Shown here: positions 7,886 to 51,271 of the stretch, piece by piece
How the letters are laid out: every line of letters begins with the position of its first letter
Numbering within the stretch: the first letter of the stretch is position 1
Source: Candidatus Micrarchaeota archaeon
GTDB taxonomy: Archaea > Micrarchaeota > Micrarchaeia > Anstonellales > Bilamarchaeaceae
Assembly: GCA_040754495.1 (NCBI GenBank)
Contig: JBFMCO010000014.1
Location: 1-58,314, forward strand
Direction of reading: 5' to 3'
Length of the DNA stretch: 58,314 bases
The notes under the pieces: model-generated
What the model was told of the DNA's origin: nothing
Seen by the model: the letters and a program-made list of their open reading frames with translations, nothing else
Databases searched by the model: none
Program-made: the position numbers and the translations under genes

Positions 7886-8245
7886 TTGGTTATGATTGCA
7901 AAGGGAGTTCTGGAGGAGCTGAGCCCGCTGGAAGCCGAGGTCCTCAAAGCCCTGCTTCCGGGCAGGAAGATGAAGGTGAGGGACGTCCATGCCTCGGTCT
8001 CGAAGAGGCAGAAGGTAGTCCTCACCAGCGTCGCGGTCATGCTGGACCGGCTTCATGGGAAGCGGCTCGTTGACCGCGAGATAGAGACGTGCCGCGGAGG
8101 CACGAGGTACATATACTTCCTGAGGAAAAGCCCGGCGGAAATAGAAGAGGAGTATCTGAAGGGCCAGGTGGACGGTATTATAAGCAAGTTCGGGGATAAG
8201 GCTATAGCGTACTTCCACAAGAGGTTCAGCGAAGGGAAAGCATGA
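7886..8245 (+). CDS. BlaI/MecI/CopY-family transcriptional repressor
   Basis: LSPLEAEVLK.L, TSV..MLDRL..K.LV.R winged helix, ...FGD.A.AYF dimerisation tail. Confidence 0.85.
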   Translation: MVMIAKGVLEELSPLEAEVLKALLPGRKMKVRDVHASVSKRQKVVLTSVAVMLDRLHGKRLVDREIETCRGGTRYIYFLRKSPAEIEEEYLKGQVDGIISKFGDKAIAYFHKRFSEGKA

Positions 8246-8961
8246 AGGAGCTCGAATGCGTCCTCGGGCCGTGCCTTGAGGCATTCCTGAAGAATCCGCT
8301 CGGGCTAGCCTCGCTCCTCATCTTCGGCGCCCTCGCCGCTGTCTCGCTGTTCGTCATAATCCGGCGGGAGGGCATGAGGTCAAGGATACGCTGGTCATAC
8401 CCCCTTGTCTTCAGCCTCCTCTTCATGGTGGCCTATTTCGCATTCACCATGATGTGCCATGACAATCTGCCCTTCTGCACCGAGCATGCGCTCATGTACG
8501 CCATACCAGCCGCAGTAATGGGCTCGTTCCTTTTCGGCTACATATTAATGCCGAACCTTTATCTGGCGTGGAACAAAGCCGTCATTTCGGAGGCACTTTC
8601 CGCGAAGCTTCCCTCCCGCGTCCCGGTATATCTCGCTGACAAGGGCAAGCCCTTCGCATTCTCCTACGGGGGCTATAGGAAATGGATAGTCATCTCCCAG
8701 GGGATGCTGGACATACTGAGCGAGAAGGAGCTCGAGGCGGTGCTCCTGCACGAATACGGCCACCTCGCGAACAACTCCTCCTTCTACAAGACGAGCGGCT
8801 GGATATACTCCAAGATCCCCCTCCTCCATGCCTTCCTCGACGGACGCTCCCTCGAGGATGAGGAGGAGCTGAAGGCGGACATGTTCGCGGCCAAACAGCA
8901 GGGGACAAGGAGATTCCTGAACTCCGCGAAGAGGAAAATGGAGAGATACTACTCCTCCTAG
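8242..8961 (+). CDS. BlaR1-like M56/M48 membrane metallopeptidase
   Basis: N-terminal TMs, AVLLHEYGH (HEXXH), EELKAD; overlaps repressor stop. Confidence 0.85.
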   Translation: MKELECVLGPCLEAFLKNPLGLASLLIFGALAAVSLFVIIRREGMRSRIRWSYPLVFSLLFMVAYFAFTMMCHDNLPFCTEHALMYAIPAAVMGSFLFGYILMPNLYLAWNKAVISEALSAKLPSRVPVYLADKGKPFAFSYGGYRKWIVISQGMLDILSEKELEAVLLHEYGHLANNSSFYKTSGWIYSKIPLLHAFLDGRSLEDEEELKADMFAAKQQGTRRFLNSAKRKMERYYSS

Positions 8962-10148
8962 GCCCCGAAAAGGTTCTTCTTCAGCGTTTCCATGACCGAA
9001 TCCGGGTTGGGCCCGATTTTTATCAGCGTGGTCTGCCCCCGGACGCCCTTCCCGCTCGGGGTGGTCACAATCAGGCCGAGCGTCTCCAAATCGTTCAGGT
9101 ACTCCTTGTACCAGCGCGAGCTGCGCGGCCTCTTGCGCGCCATCCTGCAGGATTTCTCGTATTCCTCGTAGACCTCGCCCGAGAACAGGAATCCGCCATC
9201 CACCCCTTCCAGCCTCGAATACCTGCTTCCCTGCTTGGTGATGCTGGCAATCGAATAGAGGACGAGCTGGTGCATCTCCGGAAGGGTGCTGATGGTCTCG
9301 ACCGTGAGGTCCCGCTCCACCATCTTCCTCGCCGCCTCGACGTCCTCGTCGCTCACCTTGCTCTTGCCGGACTGCTGGGCCATCTCGCCGGCCTTGTTGA
9401 GGAGCTTGAGCGCATAGCGCGCGTCCCCGCTCTCCTGGCTCGTAATCGCCGCGGCCAAATTTATCGCGGAAGGCTCGACCACGCCGGCCGCGAATCCCTC
9501 GGCCGCCCTCTGCTCGAGAATCCTCTGGAGCTGCTCGGCGGTATATGGCTGGAATATCATCTCGGTCTCATACAGGCTGCTCTTGCTGCGGGGGTCGAGC
9601 GAGTCCTTGAACGAGAGCTTGTTCGATATGCCAATCATGCTCACGCCGCCCTTCTTCATCTCGTCGTTCGAGCGGGTGAGGGTATAGACCAGCTCGTCCA
9701 GGTCCTTCACCATGTCCACTTCGTCGAGGACTACTATCAGCTGCTCGCCCATACCGGCAACCTCGACCAGCTTCTCGTAAAGGAACGGCAGGCCGAATCC
9801 CGCCTTCTCCAGCTCCGGCACATATCCCTTCAGTATCCTCTGCAGTATCCTGTACCTTGAATTGTATATCCTGCAATTAACGTAGTGGATGCTCGCAGGG
9901 CCGGCCTTCTGGGCGGCTACGAACTCCTCCATCACGCGCTTTGTGGTGCAGGTCTTTCCGGTCCCGGTCTTGCCGTAGATTATCAGGTTGCGCGGCTTCT
10001 GCCCCTTGAGGGCCGGGAATATCACGGACATTATCTCGTGCATCTGCCCCTCGCGGTAGGGGAGGTCCTTGGGAACATAATGCGGTGAGAGGACCGAGAG
10101 GTCCCGGAAGATGGATTTCTCTGAAAGGATTTTGTCAAAAGAAGCCAT
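8958..10148 (-). CDS. cdc6: Orc1/Cdc6 replication initiator
   Basis: Walker A GKTGTGKT, Walker B VLDEVD, GDARYAL, C-terminal wHTH; start moved to MASFDK. Confidence 0.95.
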   Translation of the reverse strand: MASFDKILSEKSIFRDLSVLSPHYVPKDLPYREGQMHEIMSVIFPALKGQKPRNLIIYGKTGTGKTCTTKRVMEEFVAAQKAGPASIHYVNCRIYNSRYRILQRILKGYVPELEKAGFGLPFLYEKLVEVAGMGEQLIVVLDEVDMVKDLDELVYTLTRSNDEMKKGGVSMIGISNKLSFKDSLDPRSKSSLYETEMIFQPYTAEQLQRILEQRAAEGFAAGVVEPSAINLAAAITSQESGDARYALKLLNKAGEMAQQSGKSKVSDEDVEAARKMVERDLTVETISTLPEMHQLVLYSIASITKQGSRYSRLEGVDGGFLFSGEVYEEYEKSCRMARKRPRSSRWYKEYLNDLETLGLIVTTPSGKGVRGQTTLIKIGPNPDSVMETLKKNLFGA

Positions 10149-10278
10149 GGGCAGAATTAGCCAGCAAATGTTTATATGAATAGTGGAAGTTTGGGCTGCC
10201 ACGGCGGCACGGAAAGGAATTAGGCTTTAAAACTTTCCCGTCCAGAATGGAAAATACTACTTTATAGGAGGCGAAAAA

Positions 10279-10695
10279 ATGATTGTCGGTGAAAGGATAC
10301 TCGAAGTCAGCGGGAACAAAGTGCCCAAGGGAAGCATCAAGGGCCTGAACATCAACATAAGCCTCGAGGACGTCAAGGTGTCGGAAGACAACAAGGACAA
10401 CATCGAAATCACCTACGTCTACACGGCCAACTACCAGGACAGCGTCGGCATGATAAAGATAAAGGGCGTCCTTCTCGCGAAGGAGGAAGCCAGGCTCAGC
10501 AAGGACATCGTGGAGTCCTGGAAGAAGAGCAAGAAGGTCCCGGACGAATACGCGACGGTCGTCCTCAGCGCGGTCAATTACAGCGGCAGCGCGAACGGCA
10601 CGCTCCTCGCGCGCGTCCTCAACCTCACCGCCCCGCTCATCCCGCCGAAAATCCAGCTCTCGAAGGCCACGGACGGCGGAAAGAAGTCGTCCTGA
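10279..10695 (+). CDS. Conserved archaeal hypothetical protein (possible SecB-like fold)
   Basis: GGAGG RBS, typical codon usage, beta-rich N-terminus and P-rich end; family by recollection only. Confidence 0.6.
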   Translation: MIVGERILEVSGNKVPKGSIKGLNINISLEDVKVSEDNKDNIEITYVYTANYQDSVGMIKIKGVLLAKEEARLSKDIVESWKKSKKVPDEYATVVLSAVNYSGSANGTLLARVLNLTAPLIPPKIQLSKATDGGKKSS

Positions 10696-10697
10696 GC

Positions 10698-11780
10698 TTA
10701 CGGCACAATATCCGCGCTTCCCTTGAGGGCGAAGAACACCGCCTGGTGGCGGGGAAGCTCTTTTATCTCATCCTTTTTGAACGGCCCCACCGTCTCTTCC
10801 ATCCCTATTGCAGGCACGTCTTCGGTGAATCTCACCTTCAGCCCGCCGCCCCCGGCGAGCGGGGCATCCTTCCACGGGTCGAAGGAGGAGATGTCGTCCG
10901 CGATTTTCGCGACAAGCCCGGTTTCTCCGTGGATGGAGTTCGGCACCCGGATCAGCTTGCTCAAGTCCTGCGTCACGCCGACGTCCGTATTCACCGAGCC
11001 TACGGGCAGGCTTTTCGCGACGAGCGACAGCCTCTCCCGGAGGTCGTTCAGGTTGAGCGACGTCTTGCTCCAGTTGCCCTCGTTTATGCCGCCGATGAAG
11101 AACTCCCTCTCCTTCCCGTTCGTGAATTTCCTCGAGAGGGCGGAGGGCTTCTCCTGCAGGAGCCTGATGGCGCCTCTTGCGAACCGGCCCCGGTAGCCGC
11201 CCTCGTCGGGGCGGGGCCCGAGCAGCTTCTTTCCTTCGAAAGCGAGGAACTGGAGGTAGTCCAGCCCCTGGCCCATCACGTAATCCACGAGCTCGCGCCT
11301 CTCGTCCCCCCCCAGCGGAAGATACGCCGGGTCCCGCACGTGCACGTGGTAGCCCCTGTTGCCCGAGAACACCACGGCCACGTGCTCCTTCCTTATCCCG
11401 AAATCGTTCAGGATGAAGTCCTCGACGAGCCGCACGGCGTCCTCCTTGACCTCGCCAAGCTTCGCGTAAGCCCCGTATTTTCCCTCGGCGTGTATGTCCA
11501 GGTCGAAGACGAGGTCGGCCCCCTTCCATGCCTTCTTCTGCATAGGCGTCGCGCCGGGGAACTCGTAGTATGCCGTCGAGTGCGAGACGAAGAGGGGGGT
11601 GTTCGTGACAAGATATGCCCTGAACTCCCCGAGGCTCGCGAAATTCAGGTGCCTCGCGTCTATCTTCTTCTGGTTGCCTATCCCGAATTCCCTGCGCTCC
11701 ACGTTCGGGATGCGGAACTCCGCCCTCTCGTAGTATGATGCGAAGATTTTCTTCACGAAAGACAGCCCTGCCAGGTCCAT
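10698..11780 (-). CDS. priS: DNA primase small (catalytic) subunit
   Basis: DLVFDLD, SGNRGYHVH, D.....KLIRVP.SIH. Confidence 0.95.
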   Translation of the reverse strand: MDLAGLSFVKKIFASYYERAEFRIPNVERREFGIGNQKKIDARHLNFASLGEFRAYLVTNTPLFVSHSTAYYEFPGATPMQKKAWKGADLVFDLDIHAEGKYGAYAKLGEVKEDAVRLVEDFILNDFGIRKEHVAVVFSGNRGYHVHVRDPAYLPLGGDERRELVDYVMGQGLDYLQFLAFEGKKLLGPRPDEGGYRGRFARGAIRLLQEKPSALSRKFTNGKEREFFIGGINEGNWSKTSLNLNDLRERLSLVAKSLPVGSVNTDVGVTQDLSKLIRVPNSIHGETGLVAKIADDISSFDPWKDAPLAGGGGLKVRFTEDVPAIGMEETVGPFKKDEIKELPRHQAVFFALKGSADIVP

Positions 11781-11784
11781 GCGC

Positions 11785-12726
11785 TCACCTTGCCTTTATC
11801 GCCTTCTTCCTCGCCTCGTCCAGCGTGTGCCAGTTCATCGGGTGGCCTATCCTGCAGACGGCGCAGCAGAGGCCGTAGGTCATCACCGTAGCGCAGGAGG
11901 GCACGTTGTAGCCTTTCTTCCTGATGTGGCTCACCTGGTAGGCGGTTATCTTTTCGCTGAAATCGGGCAGGTCCGAGTAGAGCTTCACTACGTCCTCCTC
12001 GCTCATCCCGGCTGCAAGCAGGTACGTGGCAAGATACCATCTAGCATGGTGCGGCAGGTTCTCGTGCTTCTTCATCTCATCCAGCAGCCTTGCGACGCAC
12101 GGCGGGTGGTCTCCTGCCTTCACCGTTATCTTCACGCTGCTTTTCGGCATCTGGGCGAGCAGCCTCGCCCCGGCCGCCTTTATCAGCTCGGGCGGGTCCT
12201 TCACCAGCGGGATGGCCTCTATGTGCTTCTTCACGGCCTCCTCTATGAGCCTCCTCTTCTCGCTGGCCTTAATCTCGACCATGCCGCGGTATATCCTGCG
12301 GTTTATGAGGCGGTAATCCGGGTTCCTCAGGCTGTACCGGACGTACGTAGGGATGTTGACGAAAAGGGTGCCGTTCCTCGTTGCCGTCGCTATCCCGAAC
12401 TGCGCGGCCACCCTGTCCACGGCCGCCTCGTCATCGCGGTCCAGGCAGTCCCTCACCCTCTTGGATTCGTTGACCGCGAACGTGTTCGTGAGGAAGTTGT
12501 TGCGCATGTGGCCGAGTATCATCCTCGCCGCTGCGAACGAGGCGATGTCCTCCAACTTGTCGGACTCGTGGAGGAGCATCTTCGCCGTCTTGTCCCCGTT
12601 CAGGGCCTTTTTTATGCGCTCGAGCCCCATCTCCACCATCCTCTCGGTGAGGCTCATCCCTTCCAGGGCGGCCCTCGCGCTGTCGCTGAAAGGATACTTC
12701 ATGGCGAAATCTAGGCCCTCTCCCAT
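11785..12726 (-). CDS. priL: DNA primase large subunit
   Basis: YPF start, HPPC, L.H.ARWYL, YQV.HI, PSC...GLC Fe-S cysteines. Confidence 0.9.
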   Translation of the reverse strand: MGEGLDFAMKYPFSDSARAALEGMSLTERMVEMGLERIKKALNGDKTAKMLLHESDKLEDIASFAAARMILGHMRNNFLTNTFAVNESKRVRDCLDRDDEAAVDRVAAQFGIATATRNGTLFVNIPTYVRYSLRNPDYRLINRRIYRGMVEIKASEKRRLIEEAVKKHIEAIPLVKDPPELIKAAGARLLAQMPKSSVKITVKAGDHPPCVARLLDEMKKHENLPHHARWYLATYLLAAGMSEEDVVKLYSDLPDFSEKITAYQVSHIRKKGYNVPSCATVMTYGLCCAVCRIGHPMNWHTLDEARKKAIKAR

Positions 12727-12808
12727 GCAGCTATATCCGCCGGCATTCTATAAAATTGCTACGGGTTCGAGGCCTCCCGCGTCCGGCCTCCGGTTCCGGG
12801 TTTTGAGT

Positions 12809-13447
12809 TCAGGGTTTTTGCGTTTTGGGGCCCGCCTTCTTCTTTTTCCGGGGGGCCTTAGGTTTCGCTTCCTGCGGAACCTCCGCCTGCGCGCCCTCGG
12901 GTGCCGGCGGGGGCGCCACCAGCACCACTTTCGGAACAGGCCTTGACGCCGCCTCGCTTCTTGCATAAGACCTTGCCGCCCTGCCCGCCAGCTCATATCC
13001 TATGTCGAAGGCGGCTATGGCTATGAAGAAGTCCCAGATGCCGACGATTGCCGGGACAAGGGCGCCGAGCTTGAGGAACGGCCTCGTCTCGGTTATCCAC
13101 CTGTAGCGGCCGATGTAATCCAGCTCGTCGAGGAAGGCGAGCACCAGGAATATCGCGAGGAGCAGCAGGTCGAGCTGGGGAAAGCCGAAATATACCAGGG
13201 ACAGCCCGGCCACGAGGAACCCGGCCCTGTGGGCGGGCGTGTCCACCTTGCGCGCGAAGACCTGCGCGAGAAGGGCGGCCAGGAACAGCACAGAGAACGT
13301 GCTCGAGCTGATGAGATAGCCTATGATGAGCCCGTAGGCGAGCGCGAGAGGGAGCTTCCGCGCGAGGGACGTCTTCCTCTCGTCGTCCATCCAGTCCACG
13401 AGCTTCACAAGGGCGCCGGCTATGAAAGCAAGGGCATACTCGAGCAT
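12809..13447 (-). CDS. Multi-pass membrane protein with Pro/Lys-rich tail
   Basis: Several TM helices, host-like codon usage. Confidence 0.65.
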   Translation of the reverse strand: MLEYALAFIAGALVKLVDWMDDERKTSLARKLPLALAYGLIIGYLISSSTFSVLFLAALLAQVFARKVDTPAHRAGFLVAGLSLVYFGFPQLDLLLLAIFLVLAFLDELDYIGRYRWITETRPFLKLGALVPAIVGIWDFFIAIAAFDIGYELAGRAARSYARSEAASRPVPKVVLVAPPPAPEGAQAEVPQEAKPKAPRKKKKAGPKTQKP

Positions 13448-13451
13448 AAGG

Positions 13452-14348
13452 TCACCTTAGGAAGCGCGCGATTATAAGGGGGAACGCTATGGTCGCGTCC
13501 GCATCGACTGTCACGTGGTTGGCGTTCTCCTTTATCTTTCCCCACGAGATGCCCTCGTTCGTCCGGGCGCCGCTCAGCGAGCCGTCCCACGGGGAGGACG
13601 TCGTGACATATACCGCGTAGTCGAAGCCTCCGCGGAGGAGGTTCACCCCTATGGCATGGTGCTTCGATATCCCCCCGCCGAGCACGATCCCGCCGGTCCT
13701 CTCGGCGTTCAGCGAAATCTGCGCAAGCTCGTTCATGTCCATGGTCACGTCTATCGCGAAATCCCTCCTTGCCTGCCTGAAGAAATACGCCTGGAGGCCT
13801 ATTGCCGAGTCAGTGATGCCAGGGCAGAACACCGGAATCCTGTTTTTCGTGCACCAGTGGAGGAAGGAGTCCGGCCCGGTCCTTTCCCCTATCTTCCTTG
13901 CGATGGCCGAGGGGCACGTCGTCCTGCCGCTCTGGTAAAGCTCCCCGAAGACGGTCTTCATGAACCCTTCGAGGTAGGCGTAGCGGTCGTTCTTCACGAG
14001 GATGTTCCCTATCCTGTTCGTGCCCTTCCGGTGAAGCGCCGCATCGTCCATCATGAAGTCGCCGAGCTCGTAGGGCTTGGCGGATTTTATGAGGTCGTGG
14101 TCCAGGCTGCCGCCTGCGGTTATTATGGCGTCCACGAACTTTTTCCTGCACATCTCCTTAATCAGGCCGCGGAGGCCGGAAGCGACCATGTTGGACGTGA
14201 ACGTCAGGAACACGGCGGCCTTCTCCTTCTTCATCCTCGCGATTATCTCTGTGGCGCGGCCCACGTTCGTGGCCTGGAACCCGCAATCAGCCAGCACCGA
14301 CCCATCCAAGGCCGCCAGGTCTTTTTGCCCAAGGTCCCGTATCCTCAT
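13452..14348 (-). CDS. dys: Deoxyhypusine synthase
   Basis: GFQA..VG.A, FTSNMVASGLR, GGGISKHH, DGSLSGAR..E..SWGK. Confidence 0.95.
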   Translation of the reverse strand: MRIRDLGQKDLAALDGSVLADCGFQATNVGRATEIIARMKKEKAAVFLTFTSNMVASGLRGLIKEMCRKKFVDAIITAGGSLDHDLIKSAKPYELGDFMMDDAALHRKGTNRIGNILVKNDRYAYLEGFMKTVFGELYQSGRTTCPSAIARKIGERTGPDSFLHWCTKNRIPVFCPGITDSAIGLQAYFFRQARRDFAIDVTMDMNELAQISLNAERTGGIVLGGGISKHHAIGVNLLRGGFDYAVYVTTSSPWDGSLSGARTNEGISWGKIKENANHVTVDADATIAFPLIIARFLR

Positions 14349-25164: not shown

Positions 25165-25407
25165 GGGCTCGTAGCTCAGTCCGCCTTTTGGGAAAAGGCG
25201 GCCCAAAACCGACTGATGAAAAACGCTTCGCGTTTTTGGCCGAATCCAATCAAAAGGCGGGAGCAGCTTGGATAGAGCGGCAGCCTTCTATGCCCCCGGC
25301 ATCCGGTTTCCGGTTTCCAGTCCCGCGTTTCGGGTACTGGTTGCCGGCTGCAGGATGCCGGATGCGCAGGCAGCTGTAGGTCGGGGGTTCAAATCCCCCC
25401 GGGCCCG
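25165..25407 (+). tRNA. tRNA-Arg(TCT) with introns at 15/16 (25180-25266) and 37/38 (25291-25371)
   Basis: GGGCTCG/CGGGCCC, GCTC/GAGC, A20, GCAGC-CTTCTAA-GCTGT, GGGGG-TTCAAAT-CCCCC; near-perfect BHB for the D-loop intron. Confidence 0.95.
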
Positions 25408-25694
25408 TATCCGCTTCCGGTTTCCCGTTTCCCGTCTTGAGTTTGACTCAGGCGGATACGGGACGTCCATGTTCCGCCGAACATGGTGCGCCTCCCTACT
25501 GTTCCTTGAACAATGGGGCACCGCGACGCCGTGCGTCGCGATTGTGTTCGGGGCGCCGGACAAGTGCGCGGAAGTGAAATCATCAGATTTCACAACGGGC
25601 CCGATTTTGTTTCACGTCCAGCGAATCAAATATAAACCCCTTTCGCTATAGATTGGATGTTAATTCTGGAGAATCCGAGCCGCCAGGTGGGAGT

Positions 25695-45070: not shown

Positions 45071-45904
45071 GCGGCGCATCGCAGCCTCTATCACGTTGCT
45101 TATCAGCATGGCGACGGTCATCGGCCCGACCCCGCCCGGGACCGGGCTGCAGTTCGCTTTCTTTATTACGTTTGGGAAATCCACGTCGCCCACTGTCTTG
45201 TCGCCCACCCGGCTGGTGCCGACGTCTATCACATGCGCGCCTTCCCTGACCATGTCCGCCTTCACGAGGCCCGGCCTGCCCGCCGCGGCGATGAGGATAT
45301 CCGCGTTCCGGGTGTGCTCGGCCAGGTTCCTGGTCCTGGAGTGGCATATCGTGACCGTCGCGTCCCGCTCGAGAAGCATGAAGGCGAGCGGCTTGCCGAC
45401 CACGTTGCCGCGCCCTATCACCGTCGCATTCGCGCCGGCGATTTTCACGCCGTAGAAATCGAGCATCTTGATTATCCCCATCGGAGTTGCCGGCATGAAC
45501 GTTTCGGATATCCCGAGGAACATCCTTCCCATGTTCGTCGAAGTCCAGCCATCGACATCCTTCCGCGGGTCTATCGCCTCGACCACATTCGGGTAATTGA
45601 TGTGCTTCGGAAGGGGCGACTGCACTATGAAGCCGTCTATGGAATCGTCTTTGTTGAGGCCCCCCACCAGCTCAAGGAGCTTATCCTCGCTCGTGTTCTC
45701 GTCCATGGCTTTGAGGCTTGTCATCACCCCGACTGATTCTGCCTTCTCCATCTTCTTGCGCACATATAGCTGCGAGGCCGGGTCGCTGCCGACAAGGACG
45801 ATGGCAAGGTGAGGGGCTCGCTTCATGGTTCTCACTATGTTTTTCGCGTTCTCGAGGATTCCCGCGGCCGGCTCGCGGCCGGACAGTGTCTTATACGCCG
45901 TCAT
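45065..45904 (-). CDS. folD: Bifunctional methylene-THF dehydrogenase/cyclohydrolase
   Basis: P.LA.VLVG.DPAS..YV..K, KDVDG, P.TP.GI, GRG..VGKP, VGDVDF, PVPGGVGPMT. Confidence 0.95.
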   Translation of the reverse strand: MTAYKTLSGREPAAGILENAKNIVRTMKRAPHLAIVLVGSDPASQLYVRKKMEKAESVGVMTSLKAMDENTSEDKLLELVGGLNKDDSIDGFIVQSPLPKHINYPNVVEAIDPRKDVDGWTSTNMGRMFLGISETFMPATPMGIIKMLDFYGVKIAGANATVIGRGNVVGKPLAFMLLERDATVTICHSRTRNLAEHTRNADILIAAAGRPGLVKADMVREGAHVIDVGTSRVGDKTVGDVDFPNVIKKANCSPVPGGVGPMTVAMLISNVIEAAMRRS

Positions 45905-46036
45905 AACGGTCTGGCTCCTGGTGTCCCCAGTTTCCTGAACACTGACCTTCTCGCAGTGAAGGGTTTTAAAAACGTTTATCGGTTTAATAGTCTCGAACAT
46001 ACGACAGCGCCGGCACATGGCGATGGGGTGTGTTTT

Positions 46037-46278
46037 GGGCCTGTAGCTCAGCTCGGTTAGAGCGACGGTCTTATACGACACGTTCTAGCACAGTTGTCTA
46101 TACGACTGAGTGCCTATGAAAGCCGTAGGTCCGGAGTTGCGCTTTTTGGGAAAAAGCGCCCAAAAACGTGTTGATGAAAAACGTTTCGCGTTTTTGGGAA
46201 TTTCCATCTGAAAGGCGCAACGGAATTCAAAAGAGTCGAAGGTCTCGACCTGCGATTCTGCGGCTCTCCGCAGGCCCA
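46037..46278 (+). tRNA. tRNA-Ile(TAT) with three introns: 37/38 (46076-46120), 53/54 (46137-46225), 59/60 (46232-46264)
   Basis: GGGCCTG/CAGGCCC-A73, ACGGT-CTTATAA-GCCGT, CGGAG-TTCAAAT-CTCCG after splicing; BHB-like motifs at each junction. Confidence 0.85.
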
Positions 46279-46457
46279 ATTTTATTTTCCTGGTGTTCAG
46301 TGTCGGGTGTTCGGTGTCCAGTATTTACGTCTGATTTTACTGCTTTCTTACTGCTGCTTTTCCAGCCGATTTTCTTTGAAATAAGATTTGATGGCTTCTG
46401 GGCCTCGGAAAAACTTATATCTTCGGCATTCATACGTATCATTCCTCCATTTTGCAT
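46264..46457 (-). CDS. Integrase N-terminal fragment (intN)
   Basis: GGAGGT RBS, ATG 46457; 58 codons then att read as KIGPAE, same frame as in intC. Confidence 0.65.
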
Positions 46458-46603
46458 TTTTCTTTACCTCCAGCTCGCGCTAGCCCTTCCGAATCGGAAA
46501 AAGCGCGGGCGGAGCCGACCGAACGGTTTCCAGCAGCCGGTGTCCGGTTGCCAGTAACGTTCAGCCTTCAATGTTTCCCATCTCAAATTCTCCTTTTTTC
46601 ATC

Positions 46604-46965
46604 TCATTTTGCCTCACCTCTCGCCTCGACCGATGCCTTGAGCTTGCACAGCATCGACCGGATTCGTACGAGCGTTGTCATGTAGTTCAGATGTTCCCGC
46701 TGGGGAATTATCTGCAAGGAGTGGCACAGGTCCAGCCAGAATTCGGCTTCGTTCGCCTCTCCGACGCAGCAGACTAGTTTTTGCTTCTGGGCTGGGATGG
46801 AACCATCGCTCCCATCTCCGCCAGGTTGGCACAGATGGAGGAAACCGAAGCCAGAAGCTGCTCCTTGGCCCGGCTGCTCATCCTCTTGTCCTCCATGAAC
46901 TGGAAGACGTCCTTCGACAGCCGAAACGCCTCCTCATAAACCCTTAACTTCTTGAAGTCCTGCAT
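46604..46965 (-). pseudogene. Four-helix-bundle (IVS/S23-like) gene with a -1 frameshift near 46806
   Basis: MQDFKKLRVYEEA...QL..S..SI.ANLAE; other frame continues DGSIPAQKQKLVCCVGEANEAEFWLDLC...KLKASVEARGEAK*. Confidence 0.8.
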
Positions 46966-47344
46966 GATTTCACCTTTTTTATGCCTAATAAATTCCTTGT
47001 CGGGGTGCATTTCCGCGGAACCCTTACCCCGGCTTCTCTATGCGTCCGGGATTTATCTCGCGAGCGTCATTGCGGCGCCCGCAATGTTTCTTCCACGGGC
47101 GGGAAGCAATGACGCGAGGCAAAAATCAGTTTCCGTATGCGTGAGATGAGGGCAACCGTGCGGAGTTTTTATTCATTTAGCAGTTTGCGTGAAGGCAGAG
47201 AGTTGGGATTAGCAAACTGCGACCTGAGCGAGGGCGAAAACGCACATTAAATCTTTCGGTGCGCCAGCACCGAACCCGAAGGGCTTGAGGTTTAAGTGCT
47301 TTTCTGCCCGAGCGAAGGGAAATGATTAAAACGGAGCACAAAGG

Positions 47345-47542
47345 TCATTCCTTTCTACGGATGGGAGCACGCCTTACTTCTATCCCATCCCCGTCTTTAT
47401 CTCTAAAAGCCGTTATTACGACCTGATCTTTTTCGGTCCAACCAAGCGTTCTGGCCTCTTTGGTGATGAAGATAGCTAATCCTGTAGCCCATGGAATTAT
47501 CTTTTTGACATTCATGGCGAGGGTTTCTCTTTTTTCCTCCAT
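47345..47542 (-). CDS. Small AbrB/MazE-like DNA-binding protein
   Basis: KIIPW..GLAIFI.KE...LGW...D.V.I pattern. Confidence 0.55.
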   Translation of the reverse strand: MEEKRETLAMNVKKIIPWATGLAIFITKEARTLGWTEKDQVVITAFRDKDGDGIEVRRAPIRRKE

Positions 47543-47611
47543 GTCGCTTAAGTTTTTAAACTGAGTATTAATAGTAAATACTTAGTTTCATAAGTAGTGA
47601 AGGGGAATACG

Positions 47612-48475
47612 ATGTCTGACATAAAATTCGTCTTAACCGGTCTGGTTGTTGTCTGCTTGCTTCTTTTTGTCGGATGCACTTCGAAAGAGTCTGGCCCGCA
47701 GTTTGCAAAACCTGCTACGGATTCACAACCAACTGCTCCGACAAGTGCTCAGCCACAAGCTATAAACTGCGGGAATGGAGCCGTGGATTCGGGTGAAACG
47801 TGCTCTTCTTGCCCGACGGACGTACAATGTTCTGCTGGAATGGTTTGCTGCTCTGGGACATGTGCCAGACCTGTCTGTAATTCATCCGCTGACTGCGACG
47901 ACAACGACAAATCAACAGTGGATACCTGCCAAAATGCGGATAGTTGCGATGCAACGTGCTCACACAGTCAAATTACCTCATGCACGGATTCTGACGGAGT
48001 GTGCCCAGATGGCTGCAATGTTTTCAATGATAACGATTGCAAAGCACTGAGCCCAGGCACAGCGGCGGATTCGGGCAATTTGCAAATTAGCGTCTCCAAT
48101 CCGTATGTTCAAGTGTGCACGAGCGATTATTCAGAGGATAAGGACACGTATCTCGTTTTCGAAGTAAACGTGGAGAACAGAGGGACCAAAAAGGAGTATA
48201 TTTCCTCTATGGAGTTTTCAGCAGTTGATCCGAACCGAAAGCAATTCGATGGCTCAATACTATCGTACCCAACAGTATTCGGAGGGAACTGTGCAGACGC
48301 TAAAAACGACGCATTTAGCGGAGGGAATTTGCTCCCGGGTTCAAAGGATAATGGCAAGATATGGATTGAGTTGAGCAATACGGGCTCTTATTCCAAAGGC
48401 AAGTGGTATATCGTATACAAGCAAACATTCAGCCTGAAGGACTTGTACACAGTATACGAAACTCAGCTCAACTGA
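47612..48475 (+). CDS. Cys-rich surface lipoprotein with C-terminal DUF4352-like Ig domain
   Basis: Lipobox FVGC; CGNG...GETC, CDDND...VDTC, GVCP.GC...DNDC repeats; V.V.N.G...F..VD...KQF. Confidence 0.75.
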   Translation: MSDIKFVLTGLVVVCLLLFVGCTSKESGPQFAKPATDSQPTAPTSAQPQAINCGNGAVDSGETCSSCPTDVQCSAGMVCCSGTCARPVCNSSADCDDNDKSTVDTCQNADSCDATCSHSQITSCTDSDGVCPDGCNVFNDNDCKALSPGTAADSGNLQISVSNPYVQVCTSDYSEDKDTYLVFEVNVENRGTKKEYISSMEFSAVDPNRKQFDGSILSYPTVFGGNCADAKNDAFSGGNLLPGSKDNGKIWIELSNTGSYSKGKWYIVYKQTFSLKDLYTVYETQLN

Positions 48476-48497
48476 TTTTTCTTTTCATTTTCATTTC

Positions 48498-49442
48498 TTA
48501 CATTTTTTCCTGCATCCCCCTCACTTTTTCCAGAAGCCGCTCATCCTGCGCCCTCTCAATGCCCCCATAAAGCTCCTCCTTCTTCGTATGGATGTAAATC
48601 ATCGTTGTCTGGATGTTGGTATGCCGGGCAAACCTGCCAGCCAGCATGACGTTGCCGCCGTTCTTCCGGCAGAAGTTCGTGATGGCATAGTGCCTCAGGC
48701 TATGCGGACTGAGGCGAAACAGGGGTTTCGGATGAGCGCCTGCGCTGTAACCATAAATCTCAGCCAGCCCTGCCTTCTCTGCGTATCCGTGGAAAACGTT
48801 TCTCGCTGTTTCACGGGTTAAGTGGGATTCTATTTTCCGGGTCCTCCATCCATAAGCGAACGAAAAGAAAAGGAAGCCTTCTGCTTTGGCGATTTCCATC
48901 TCATAGGCAGCGATATACTGCAAGGTGGCATCGAACAGCTTTTCTGGAATCAGAAGATAGTCCGTTTTCCCGCTCTTTTCCGAGAAGATGCGCAGCTCGT
49001 GGGTTTTCAGGTTCAGGTCCTTGATGTTCATCCGTATGGCTTCCCCAATCCTGAGGCCGAGGATTGCCTGGAAGCTGAAAAGCAGGTGCGCTTTTGGATC
49101 GTCTATAACGCTGAAAAACCGCTCCAATTCTTCATCCGTAAATCCTTTGTTCATTGAGCCGTACTTCGGTCTTTTTGAGCGAAGGAAGCGCCTTTTCCTC
49201 GCTTCTGACAGGATAGTGATTGCCTTTACCAGATTCCACTTTGTGAGATGACGCCCGTAGTGTTCCAGTTCCTGCCTGATTTCCGGCCAATTCCGGGTTA
49301 ACTCCTTGGAGATTTCCCTTGCTGTTTTAACTAATTGTGCTTCGCCACAATCCAGAAACTGGGCACCCGACACGGAACACTGACGGGAAACCGGACACTG
49401 GCCACTGGAAACCGCTTCACCCCTCTCCGCAGGCCCAATTTT
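48498..49442 (-). CDS. Tyrosine recombinase/integrase C-terminal fragment (intC)
   Basis: GLRIGE (R), K, HSLRH (HxxR), ARHTN (H), TTMIY (Y). Confidence 0.92.
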   Translation of the reverse strand, partial: KIGPAERGEAVSSGQCPVSRQCSVSGAQFLDCGEAQLVKTAREISKELTRNWPEIRQELEHYGRHLTKWNLVKAITILSEARKRRFLRSKRPKYGSMNKGFTDEELERFFSVIDDPKAHLLFSFQAILGLRIGEAIRMNIKDLNLKTHELRIFSEKSGKTDYLLIPEKLFDATLQYIAAYEMEIAKAEGFLFFSFAYGWRTRKIESHLTRETARNVFHGYAEKAGLAEIYGYSAGAHPKPLFRLSPHSLRHYAITNFCRKNGGNVMLAGRFARHTNIQTTMIYIHTKKEELYGGIERAQDERLLEKVRGMQEKM

Positions 49443-49568
49443 CCTTCTTTTACCAGGTGCCAGCCCAAGCAAAGGCCCAGGGAAATTGGGAATAAAGTGA
49501 AATCGCCGCACGATTTCACGACAGGCCCAATTTTCCTTCTTTTACCAGGTGCCAGCCCAAGCAAAGGC
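49430..49568 (+). repeat. 47-bp direct repeat (49430-49476, 49522-49568), 92-bp period, starting with tRNA-Ile 3' end
   Basis: CAGGCCCAATTTTCCTTCTTTTACCAGGTGCCAGCCCAAGCAAAGGC twice. Confidence 0.9.
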
Positions 49569-49654
49569 TCAGGGAACTCTGGCCCCGGCAATACCTGCCC
49601 AACCACCCGTTGATTCACACCAAGGCTTAAATTCCCAGCCTCCACGTTCTATCC

Positions 49655-51271
49655 GTGTGCGGGATAAGTGCCGTCTTCGGCTATGGCTTAAAAGATGGCG
49701 GCTCACTCGTCATGAAAAGCCTCGAAGCGGTGAGGCACCGGGGCCACAGCCTCTTCGAGACGGCGGTATTCGACAACTGCGCACTCGGGGCGAACCGGCT
49801 GGAGATAGTCGACCGGGACAGTGCTAAGCAGCCCCAGCCCAACGAGGACGGGACGCTGTTCGCAGTCCTGAACGGCGAAATCTACAACCACGATGCGCTC
49901 CGGGCGGAACTGGGGAAAAAAGGGCATATATTCCGGACCGTTTCTGATACTGAAGTCCTCGCCCACCTGTACGAGGAGCACGGGCCGGGCATGGTGAAGA
50001 TGCTCGACTCCGAGATGTTCGCGTTCTTCATCTACGACAAGGGAAGAAATTCGTTTTTCTCGGCAAGGGACAGGTATGGCGTGAAGCCGCTGTACTATGC
50101 CCGCGACTCGTCCGGGAACTGGCATTTCGCCTCGGAGATGAAACAGCTCGTCCAATTCGCGGATATACCGGAGATCCACGATTTTCCGCCGGGCCATTAC
50201 ATGCTCGGCGGGAAGCTCGAGCGGTATCATACGATGCCGGCCCCGGAAGACGTTATGGATGACAGCGTCGCCAGCATCGTACAGAACCTCAGGCGCCTTT
50301 TCGATGAAGCCGTAAGAAAACGGCTGGACACGGACCTGCCGGTGGCCGTCTTCTTCAGCGGCGGGCTCGACAGCGCAGCGGTCCTGACGAGCGCCCGGAA
50401 GTACAAGGAGGTCACGGCCATAACCGTCGGGCGTCCGGACTCACCGGACATGCTCGCGGCGCGGAGATACTGCGACGAGTCCGGCGTGCCTATCATCCGC
50501 TTCCATCCGCCTGATGCGGAAGAGCTGGCCGCGATGATACCGGAAGTCGTGCGCATCACGGAAAGCTTCGAGCCGAACCTGGTCCGGCACGGCGCGCTCT
50601 CCCTCTTCGCCGCGAAGCTCGCAAGGGAGAACGGGTTCAGGGTCGTTCTCTGCGGGGAGGGCTCGGACGAGCTTTTCGCCGGATATGAGGTTTTCGGGCA
50701 ATCCCGCGGCCTTCACCTCTCCTACCTGCTCCACCACGGGCTAAAGCGCCTGCCTTATGTGGTGTTCCAGCGCGTTGATAGGACCTCGATGTTCCATACG
50801 ATAGAGGTCCGGCTGCCGTTCTTCGACACGGAGTTCGCGGATTATGCGATGCGGATACCGGGCGAACTCAAGCTGCGCGATTCCGGCGGCAGGGGGGTTG
50901 CGAAGTGGGTCCTGAGGGAAGCCATGAAGGACAGGCTGCCAGGATACATCGTGGAGCGGCAGAAGATGCCGTTCACTTCCGGCGCTGGCTGCGACGTTGG
51001 AGGGGACGGGCGGCCGTTTTCGGAAATCATGAGCCGGATGCTCAGCGACGCTGAATTCGGGCGGATGAAAGCTGAATGCGCCTCCTGGAACATAGCCGGC
51101 AGGGAAGCCGCCTACTATTTCCGCCTCTTCGGCGAGTGCCTTTACACGAAGGCAGGGTTCGCCAGGAACCGGCCGACCTACGGAATACTCCGGCATCCGA
51201 TGAGGGCGGTCGCCGGCTACATCATCCCTCATCTGGGATGGCGGATATCTTCTATGCGCCGCCCGGCCTGA
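49655..51271 (+). CDS. asnB: Asparagine synthase (glutamine-hydrolysing)
   Basis: MCGI Ntn Cys, NGEIYN, SDTEV, ARD.YG.KPL, SGGLDS, GEGSDELFAGY, EVRLPFFD. Confidence 0.92.
   Translation: MCGISAVFGYGLKDGGSLVMKSLEAVRHRGHSLFETAVFDNCALGANRLEIVDRDSAKQPQPNEDGTLFAVLNGEIYNHDALRAELGKKGHIFRTVSDTEVLAHLYEEHGPGMVKMLDSEMFAFFIYDKGRNSFFSARDRYGVKPLYYARDSSGNWHFASEMKQLVQFADIPEIHDFPPGHYMLGGKLERYHTMPAPEDVMDDSVASIVQNLRRLFDEAVRKRLDTDLPVAVFFSGGLDSAAVLTSARKYKEVTAITVGRPDSPDMLAARRYCDESGVPIIRFHPPDAEELAAMIPEVVRITESFEPNLVRHGALSLFAAKLARENGFRVVLCGEGSDELFAGYEVFGQSRGLHLSYLLHHGLKRLPYVVFQRVDRTSMFHTIEVRLPFFDTEFADYAMRIPGELKLRDSGGRGVAKWVLREAMKDRLPGYIVERQKMPFTSGAGCDVGGDGRPFSEIMSRMLSDAEFGRMKAECASWNIAGREAAYYFRLFGECLYTKAGFARNRPTYGILRHPMRAVAGYIIPHLGWRISSMRRPA

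Follow-up and report, generated by a model that had tools for sequence, protein, structure and literature searches.

A 3.16-kb insert at a tRNA-Ile gene of a Micrarchaeota archaeon carries an Xer-like integrase gene split by its own attachment site

The 58,314-nt stretch of contig JBFMCO010000014.1 analyzed here (the window; Candidatus Micrarchaeota archaeon, GenBank assembly GCA_040754495.1) contains an insert of 3.16 kb at the 3' end of a tRNA-Ile(UAU) gene. In our view this insert is probably a small mobile element, site-specific in its integration and now in the integrated state, whose Xer-like integrase gene is split by the attachment site (att) and is rejoined in frame when the element circularizes. 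Behind this reading stand the boundaries of the insert, its target, an empty site in a relative, the in-frame junction, the conservation of the detached N-terminal piece (IntN) and an architecture common to a family of related elements. The topology is that of the SSV-type integrases built on an Xer-like scaffold in a DPANN archaeon, a design previously known only from heat-loving archaea.

The ends of the insert are marked by an exact 20-bp direct repeat, CTCTCCGCAGGCCCAATTTT, at 46264-46283 and 49423-49442, with a spacing of 3,159 bp. No match to this repeat pair arose in 100 dinucleotide shuffles of the window, and the organism's own 1.63-Mb assembly has the 20-mer at attL and attR with no further copies. 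GC content is 0.44-0.53 between the repeats and about 0.58-0.64 in the flanks, which leaves the insert 10 GC points under the level of its host. In the related genome G018 just 68 nt run from tRNA-Ile to asnB, a clean empty site, and in genome G019 the trailer behind the tRNA matches the flank of the window's attR. Since the synteny folD-tRNA-asnB is kept in relatives without an insert, the 3.16 kb represents an insertion into an ancestral arrangement. An att-bounded insert of 3.2 kb in a DPANN genome was what the original prediction, made from the sequence of the window, had proposed, and the exact repeats and the empty site bear it out.

At 49522-49576 there is a third, partial copy of the repeat, in which 13 nt are followed by 42 nt of flank. 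We considered placing the right end at this copy (49522-49534, giving a 3,251-bp unit) and judged it less likely, both because the match covers only 13 nt and because the intervening cassette occurs in relatives without the element. Recombination between the first and third copies is possible. As a separate observation at the same site, genome G011 (locus L027, G011:C15, about 1715-2571) has about 855 nt between tRNA-Ile and asnB with no integrase; this segment opens with repeats like those of the IntN arm and looks like the decayed remnant of an element.

ARAGORN found no tRNA in the raw 58-kb window, and a search of 45500-50000 against Rfam returned nothing. When three introns (45 nt at position 37/38, and 89 nt and 33 nt both in the T-loop) were excised in silico, ARAGORN returned a clean 75-nt tRNA-Ile(tat) cloverleaf. 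This intron-rich gene is kept beside folD in genomes of the same genus, T-loop introns included. Of the 20 bp of the repeat, one is the final base of the third intron, 14 form the 3' end of the tRNA and five belong to the trailer, so an intact tRNA is rebuilt at attL. We also considered whether the 122 nt between the T-stem halves might be the scar of an older element and rejected this, since they are conserved as two introns in orthologous tRNAs.

Both att copies encode K-I-G-P-A-E on the minus strand, the left one in an open reading frame (ORF) at 46227-46457 and the right one in an ORF at 48498-49511. The former has 76 codons from ATG 46457, with GGAGGT at 46466-46471, 8 nt 5' of the ATG; the latter, ending at 48498, has 337 codons. 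Joining the two ends of the insert in silico produced an open frame of 372 aa, made up of 58 aa of IntN and 314 aa of the C-terminal piece (IntC). All of the residues expected of a tyrosine recombinase are present in it (R189, K217, H305-S-L-R308 as the HxxR motif, H332 and Y341), and across 48 homologs R189, K217, H305, R308 and H332 are invariant and Y341 nearly so, at 90% or more. The predicted KIGPAE reading in both frames, the 58-codon piece with its start and ribosome-binding site, and the 372-aa recombinase with R-K-HxxR-H-Y that forms on joining were thus all confirmed.

IntN is recognizable by three features: it starts with GGAGGT-ATG, stays open over 52-60 codons in which Lys, Ser and Asn abound, and ends in TGHRTP(D/N)TEH. 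GGAGGT-ATG together with TGHRTPDTEH is kept in the window, in two copies at locus L037, and at L071, L072 and L073, and locus L011 carries the variant TGHRTPNTEH. The Thr codon that follows the motif varies among ACT, ACC and ACG, which fits a coding constraint on IntN. Conservation of IntN among homologous elements was one of the points on which the prediction had been made to hang; it is seen, start included, in at least five related elements.

Immediately beyond attR, and 5' of IntC, lies a roughly 90-bp, non-coding mini-cassette. Its unit (49443-49534) consists of flank, a hairpin and the second copy of the tRNA end; 55 nt of tRNA end and flank are duplicated at 98% identity behind tRNA-Ile. 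The same cassette is found behind tRNA-Ile at loci L029, L030, L034 and L036, which have no element there, and the same module stands 5' of other IntC copies at L009, L039 and C13, a 70%-identical integrase paralog on contig 13 of the same assembly (L002, 302-1470; the contig ends within the element). The cassette is therefore a neighbor of the element and not part of it. The IntC frame is open upstream as far as GTG 49511, as had been noted in the original prediction, but this codon sits in the loop of the hairpin of what is an unrelated cassette. The frame from cassette to IntC is continuous in the window and at L039, but not in the contig 13 paralog, where a shift of one base separates the cassette ORF (MKSLRRFHFFPNF...) from the frame of IntC. 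Judged from these frames, expression of intC from the flank while the element is integrated is possible.

Several observations weigh against the view that rejoining matters to the enzyme or still takes place. In an AlphaFold2 model of the homolog P0021 (366 aa), residues 1-87 have confidence scores (pLDDT) below 50, and the fold starts about 35 residues past att. IntN and the att-encoded stretch are predicted on this basis to be disordered, and the split takes away a start signal and a probably flexible tail but no folded domain. At least 14 of the 120 homologs listed begin M-G-P at att itself. In those copies the ATG is the complement of the last bases of the tRNA plus one trailer base, and insertion detaches no more than the promoter and a few codons. 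With so many homologs starting at att, IntN may be dispensable, and given also the predicted disorder of the detached piece, the split may be less "suicidal" than in SSV. The only contiguous IntN-IntC protein found among 5.8 billion proteins was P0021, which comes from an integrated array. A word-based search, a weak negative by its nature, returned no full-length protein with the window's IntN tail and only P0021 itself with residues 1-62 of P0021. No attP junction was found in the organism's own assembly or in JGI metagenome contigs, and terminal overlap, a sign of a circle, was found in 0 of 11 short related contigs. Finally, a backbone gene for a four-helix protein is frameshifted in the window, though this could be a consensus error of the metagenome-assembled genome (MAG).

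The first of these points could mean that the split is irrelevant in practice, with IntC alone the working enzyme and IntN a dispensable tail, in which case the insert would be an ordinary self-excising integrative element of the pNOB8/lambda type. Translation would then begin at GTG 49511 or TTG 49472 in the window and at the ATG at att in most relatives. IntC does hold all the folded domains and the catalytic residues, the homologs beginning MGP at att have just such a start, and the flank ORF is in frame with IntC in the window, in P0002 (which has the same att) and at L039. However, it would not be improbable for about 20 A-rich codons to contain an in-frame start by chance, the cassette ORF of the contig 13 paralog is out of frame, and IntN retains its own ribosome-binding site and ATG in the related elements described above. 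We find this explanation a possible but rather doubtful one. The family as a whole grades from members with their start codon at att to members with 58 codons detached. Among relatives the tRNA-derived GGGCC is read in two frames, with Gly-Pro the outcome either way.

On our preferred reading, the integrase gene of the free circle would extend from ATG 46457 through attP and on into the body that is now found at 49442-48498. Recombination by the integrase took place between attP and the same 20 bp in the 3' end of tRNA-Ile(UAU). Integration restored the tRNA at attL, moved the old tRNA end to attR, and parted the promoter, the ribosome-binding site and the first 58 codons from the 314 codons of IntC. 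Excision would then require full-length integrase, which could be supplied by a second element or by a leftover upstream IntN, both of which are seen in relatives, or perhaps by translation started in the flank. Two inverted repeats (I1 and I2) pair opposite ends of the insert and would interleave around att in the circle, and part of them, when translated, is the low-complexity stretch right after att. They probably bind the integrase around attP, since their arrangement is the one expected for recombinase-binding sites. As the element seemingly has no replication function of its own, it would persist mainly as an integrated islet.

The perfect 20/20 repeats, the intact integrase halves and the low GC content suggest a recent insertion, and the frameshifted four-helix gene suggests either early decay or a MAG consensus error. 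The insert might also be a fixed, immobile relic whose in-frame junction is historical rather than functional. The frameshift, the lack of a circle or attP in the own assembly, the short related contigs and the metagenome contigs, and decayed remnants at the same site in relatives (such as the 855 nt of arm-like debris in G011) all fit such a relic. We nonetheless think it unlikely, because the repeats remain perfect, both integrase halves are open with every catalytic residue intact, the GC content is still that far below the host's, and the frameshift may not be real. An attB junction was likewise absent from the own assembly and the metagenome contigs.

The original prediction had likened the integrase to those of SSV1 and pTN3. 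The likeness holds for the topology, with att inside the int ORF, the halves at opposite ends, and a tRNA target flanked by att direct repeats; Int(N) and Int(C) also lie at opposite ends at L011, L037 and L071. It does not extend to the protein family. Pfam assigned PF00589 alone, and PF16795 was unmatched in four family members even at E <= 10. The motif is HxxR and not the KxxR of the SSV/pTN3/pT26-2 clade. BLASTP against SSV1 Int gave E 4.4, and the SSV1 Int chain was absent both among PDB matches at E <= 1 and among the Foldseek matches listed (top 50 ranks). The closest solved proteins are XerA by sequence (5HXY, 4A8E), and integron integrase, XerA, XerH and Tn1549 Int by fold. With PF00589 and R-K-HxxR-H-Y it belongs to the tyrosine recombinase superfamily. 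It is not XerA itself, since it scored 74 bits against a cut-off of 220 for the XerA equivalog, and its patchy, multi-copy occurrence does not suit a chromosome-dimer resolvase. By sequence, then, we have a canonical Xer-like tyrosine recombinase of two domains; its topology is type I, but its protein lineage is different.

The closest known systems by topology are the "suicidal" (type I) archaeal integrases of the SSV type (She et al. 2002; Badel et al. 2020, PMC7253208; Badel et al. 2021, PMC8371274). In SSV1, pTN3 and pT26-2, as here, attP lies inside the int ORF, and once the element has entered the 3' end of a tRNA gene, Int(N) stands at one end of it and Int(C) at the other. The site of the split is near the 5' end of int in both cases (the annotated site is 190-233 nt into SSV1 int; in the window it follows codon 58). 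Two further features have been described likewise for pT26-2 integrases by Badel et al., namely an att-encoded stretch that is rich in Gly and Pro and read in alternate frames among relatives, and the occurrence of hybrid N and C halves. There are also clear differences. The att is 13-41 bp in the window's family and 40-50 bp for suicidal integrases, the hosts are known from MAGs of groundwater and sediment and are not hyperthermophiles, and what is detached is a tail predicted to be disordered, unlike in SSV-type integrases. A reconstituted intact int within an integrated array has been stated to be unobserved for suicidal integrases (Badel 2020, PMC7253208), but the array at L037 has one.

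The XerA and integron integrases (PDB 5HXY, 4A8E, 2A3V) resemble the window's integrase best by both sequence and fold, with two domains and R-K-HxxR-H-Y. Unlike XerA, however, it is borne on an insert, is patchy (30/99 host-family genomes) and multi-copy, and is aimed at tRNA ends instead of dif. Elements of the pNOB8 type (type II) and tRNA islets are likewise tRNA-targeting, driven by a tyrosine recombinase, and loaded with variable, defense-like cargo. In type II, att lies outside int and int stays intact, whereas the window's int has lost its native start and 58 codons to the split; relatives with an ATG at att stand at the boundary between types I and II.

A 2021 review tied self-cutting integrases to hyperthermophiles, placed all of them in PF16795, inferred a single origin, gave R...KxxR...Y as the SSV1-type signature and left DPANN unmentioned (PMC8371274). 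Not one provirus turned up among the 1,356 Micrarchaeota genomes surveyed in a 2026 study (PMC13573593). Our literature search for SSV-type integrases in DPANN found no such element described, as judged for the papers on Micrarchaeota integrases and tRNAs from their titles and abstracts. The window element and at least 191 relatives show the same topology on a different recombinase scaffold, in DPANN of groundwater and sediment. The intermediate forms and the arrays that rebuild the gene offer a natural series for studying how and why att enters an integrase gene.

We found 191 homologs of the C-terminal part at E <= 1e-20. The integrase family is carried, patchily, by 30 of the 99 genomes of the host family (10 of 23 genera) and by 98 of 401 sampled Micrarchaeota genomes, a tally that includes one match in an unpublished genome (G259), on which nothing else here depends. 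Carriers fall mostly into three families and have as many as 5 copies in a genome, and the hosts of relatives are Micrarchaeota from groundwater, sediment and deep-mine samples. As far as sampled, the element family is confined to a few Micrarchaeota families.

The search for homologous elements that had been suggested did yield related elements beside tRNA genes. Four loci have the integrated architecture of the window: L011 (tRNA-Val, 14-bp repeat, 6.1 kb), L013 (an intron-bearing tRNA-Ser, 13-bp repeat, 5.1 kb), L037 (tRNA-Ile beside folD, 41-bp repeat, 6.1 kb) and L071 (about 8.5 kb), where IntC, an Avd-like gene and IntN follow in this order, the last abutting a tRNA gene. In the L037 array (8001-14304), a second IntN stands directly 5' of att and IntC, producing an intact 366-aa gene inside integrated DNA, and this gene is present on four contigs. 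On contig 37 of genome G054 (L064, G054:C37:41000-47402), two elements lie in tandem with the IntN of one abutting the IntC of the next.

The common backbone runs in the order int, variable cargo, structured non-coding element, Avd-like four-helix gene, and IntN with att. In DNA comparisons, the window and loci L037 and L038 have the integrase, the non-coding segment, the four-helix gene and the IntN end in common; L013 shares three of these parts with the window, the IntN end excepted, and L011 only the integrase and the Avd-like region. The cargo differs from copy to copy. The DUF4352 lipoprotein occurs only in the window copy and has no counterpart in the five related elements compared, L013 carries an N6/N4 methylase with a ScaI-type endonuclease, and L037 carries an 898-aa N6 methylase. 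A reverse transcriptase is encoded in L011 and on the contig of P0002, the closest homolog. This points to a route by which accessory genes (restriction-modification systems, reverse transcriptases with an Avd-like gene, surface proteins) may move among genome-reduced symbionts.

Part of the cargo originally proposed for the window stands, namely the lipoprotein and the four-helix gene. The latter is frameshifted, with intact homologs matching it by tblastn in two pieces (frames -1 and -3, 80-85% identical), and the call of an AbrB-like gene is a weak one. An intact homolog of the four-helix gene matches phrog_3206, annotated as the Avd protein of a diversity-generating retroelement (DGR), at E 2e-4. 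We rejected the window element as a DGR because it has no reverse transcriptase, no direct repeat of the template/variable type and only the frameshifted Avd-like gene. Elsewhere, at 9811-11750 of L011, a reverse transcriptase that seems to be split over two overlapping ORFs adjoins the Avd-like gene, a candidate DGR on an integrative backbone. On the P0002 contig the reverse transcriptase lies just downstream of int.

No Rep, capsid or transfer gene was recognized in any of the five elements, in agreement with what had been predicted for the window. As several ORFs belong to no family, "Rep-less" here means without a recognizable Rep. The description of the element as satellite-like is not supported: no helper, packaging signal or circle was found, and the relatives look like small cargo-carrying integrative islets. 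A satellite would need a helper virus or plasmid in order to replicate, be packaged and be transferred. The small size, the missing genes and a conserved, structured non-coding element with a possible role as a cis signal are compatible with this, but no helper was identified, and the larger relatives carry restriction-modification, reverse transcriptase and methylase cargo with no virion or replication genes. Furthermore, IMG/VR held no relatives, and tblastn against phage and plasmid collections gave distant matches only, those listed being bacterial or metagenomic with no archaeal virus or plasmid among them. We consider a satellite very improbable.

The structured non-coding element always lies about 270-400 nt 5' of the four-helix gene and is co-oriented with it. 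It has no Rfam match. Its long-range stem, GAAAAGCAC/GTGCATTTTC, also occurs in a GGAG/CTCC variant that compensates, and covariation is seen in 10 of the 22 pairs predicted. The element might act as an RNA leader or as an origin, or provide a site for the four-helix protein. A set of loci with this element (about 115 nt, L041-L057) has an integrase within about 1.5 kb, the span inspected, in a single case (L048).

Table 1. Coordinates of the insert, its target gene and adjacent features in the window.
Feature	Position	Strand	Remarks
tRNA-Ile(UAU), target gene	46037-46278	+	Three inferred introns, 46076-46120, 46139-46227 and 46232-46264; last 14 nt within attL
attL	46264-46283	+	1 nt of intron, last 14 nt of tRNA and 5 nt of trailer
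IntN, first 58 integrase codons	46284-46457	-	Integrated ORF continues through attL to 46227
Inverted repeat I2, left arm	46293-46318		Partner 49355-49380, across att in the circle; 26 nt, 81% complementary
Inverted repeat I1, left arm	46524-46555		intN upstream region; partner 49383-49414; 32 nt, 84% complementary
Avd-like four-helix-bundle gene (PF05635)	46607-46965	-	Frameshift near 46792-46813; PF05635 and TIGR02436 match the N-terminal part
Structured non-coding element	47011-47344 (core 47223-47339)	-	Upstream of the Avd-like gene; 75-83% identical in 16/99 family genomes
65-aa ORF, weakly AbrB/MazE-like	47345-47542	-	PF04014 E 0.055, below cut-off; no PHROG or NCBIfam match
Cys-rich lipoprotein, DUF4352 domain	47612-48475	+	PF11611 3.9e-7, above cut-off; phrog_806; lipobox LLFVGC
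IntC, 314 codons	48498-49442	-	All folded domains and catalytic residues; PF00589 6e-19
attR	49423-49442	+	Displaced copy of the tRNA 3' end
Hairpin mini-cassette (GTGAAATCG..CGATTTCAC), flank outside the element	49443-49576		Third copy of the tRNA end (13 nt, 49522-49534); 42-nt flank duplicated

Beyond the insert itself, we tentatively raise the idea, which we hold with low confidence, that non-thermophilic DPANN saw a second origin of self-partitioning integrases, with ordinary Xer-like PF00589 recombinases as the source, and that the same family may be the missing enzyme behind the mini-cassettes and some unusual introns at Micrarchaeota tRNA genes. A role for the integrase is conceivable because the cassettes and an intron in the window's tRNA-Arg gene carry the GGTTTCC-type repeats that flank att in integrase genes. 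The tRNA-Arg intron (25296-25370) and the cassette behind that gene (25410-25440) carry CCGGTTTCC(C)G repeats, which resemble the repeats flanking att inside family integrase genes (L006-L010, C13). This similarity is a hint that these insertions are targets or products of the integrase. The mini-cassettes behind tRNA-Ile (49443-49576) and tRNA-Arg (25406-25608) share a terminal hairpin, GTGAAATC..GATTTCAC.

The window contains at least two tRNA genes, tRNA-Ile (46037-46278) and tRNA-Arg (25166-25405), which are both hidden from ARAGORN by several non-canonically placed introns, and in tRNA-Ile an exon of 4-6 nt separates the two T-loop introns. An intron module of 30-60 nt, present in the window at 46138-46197 and 25182-25239, is 97-100% identical at many loci (G001-G098) and is found in other tRNA genes across the genus as well. 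It is built of a hairpin, GCGCTTTTTGGGAAAAAGCGC, followed by CCCAAAAC..TGATGAAAAACG..CTGA, and its sequence, with motifs resembling C/D boxes, suggests an intron cassette that is mobile or templated.

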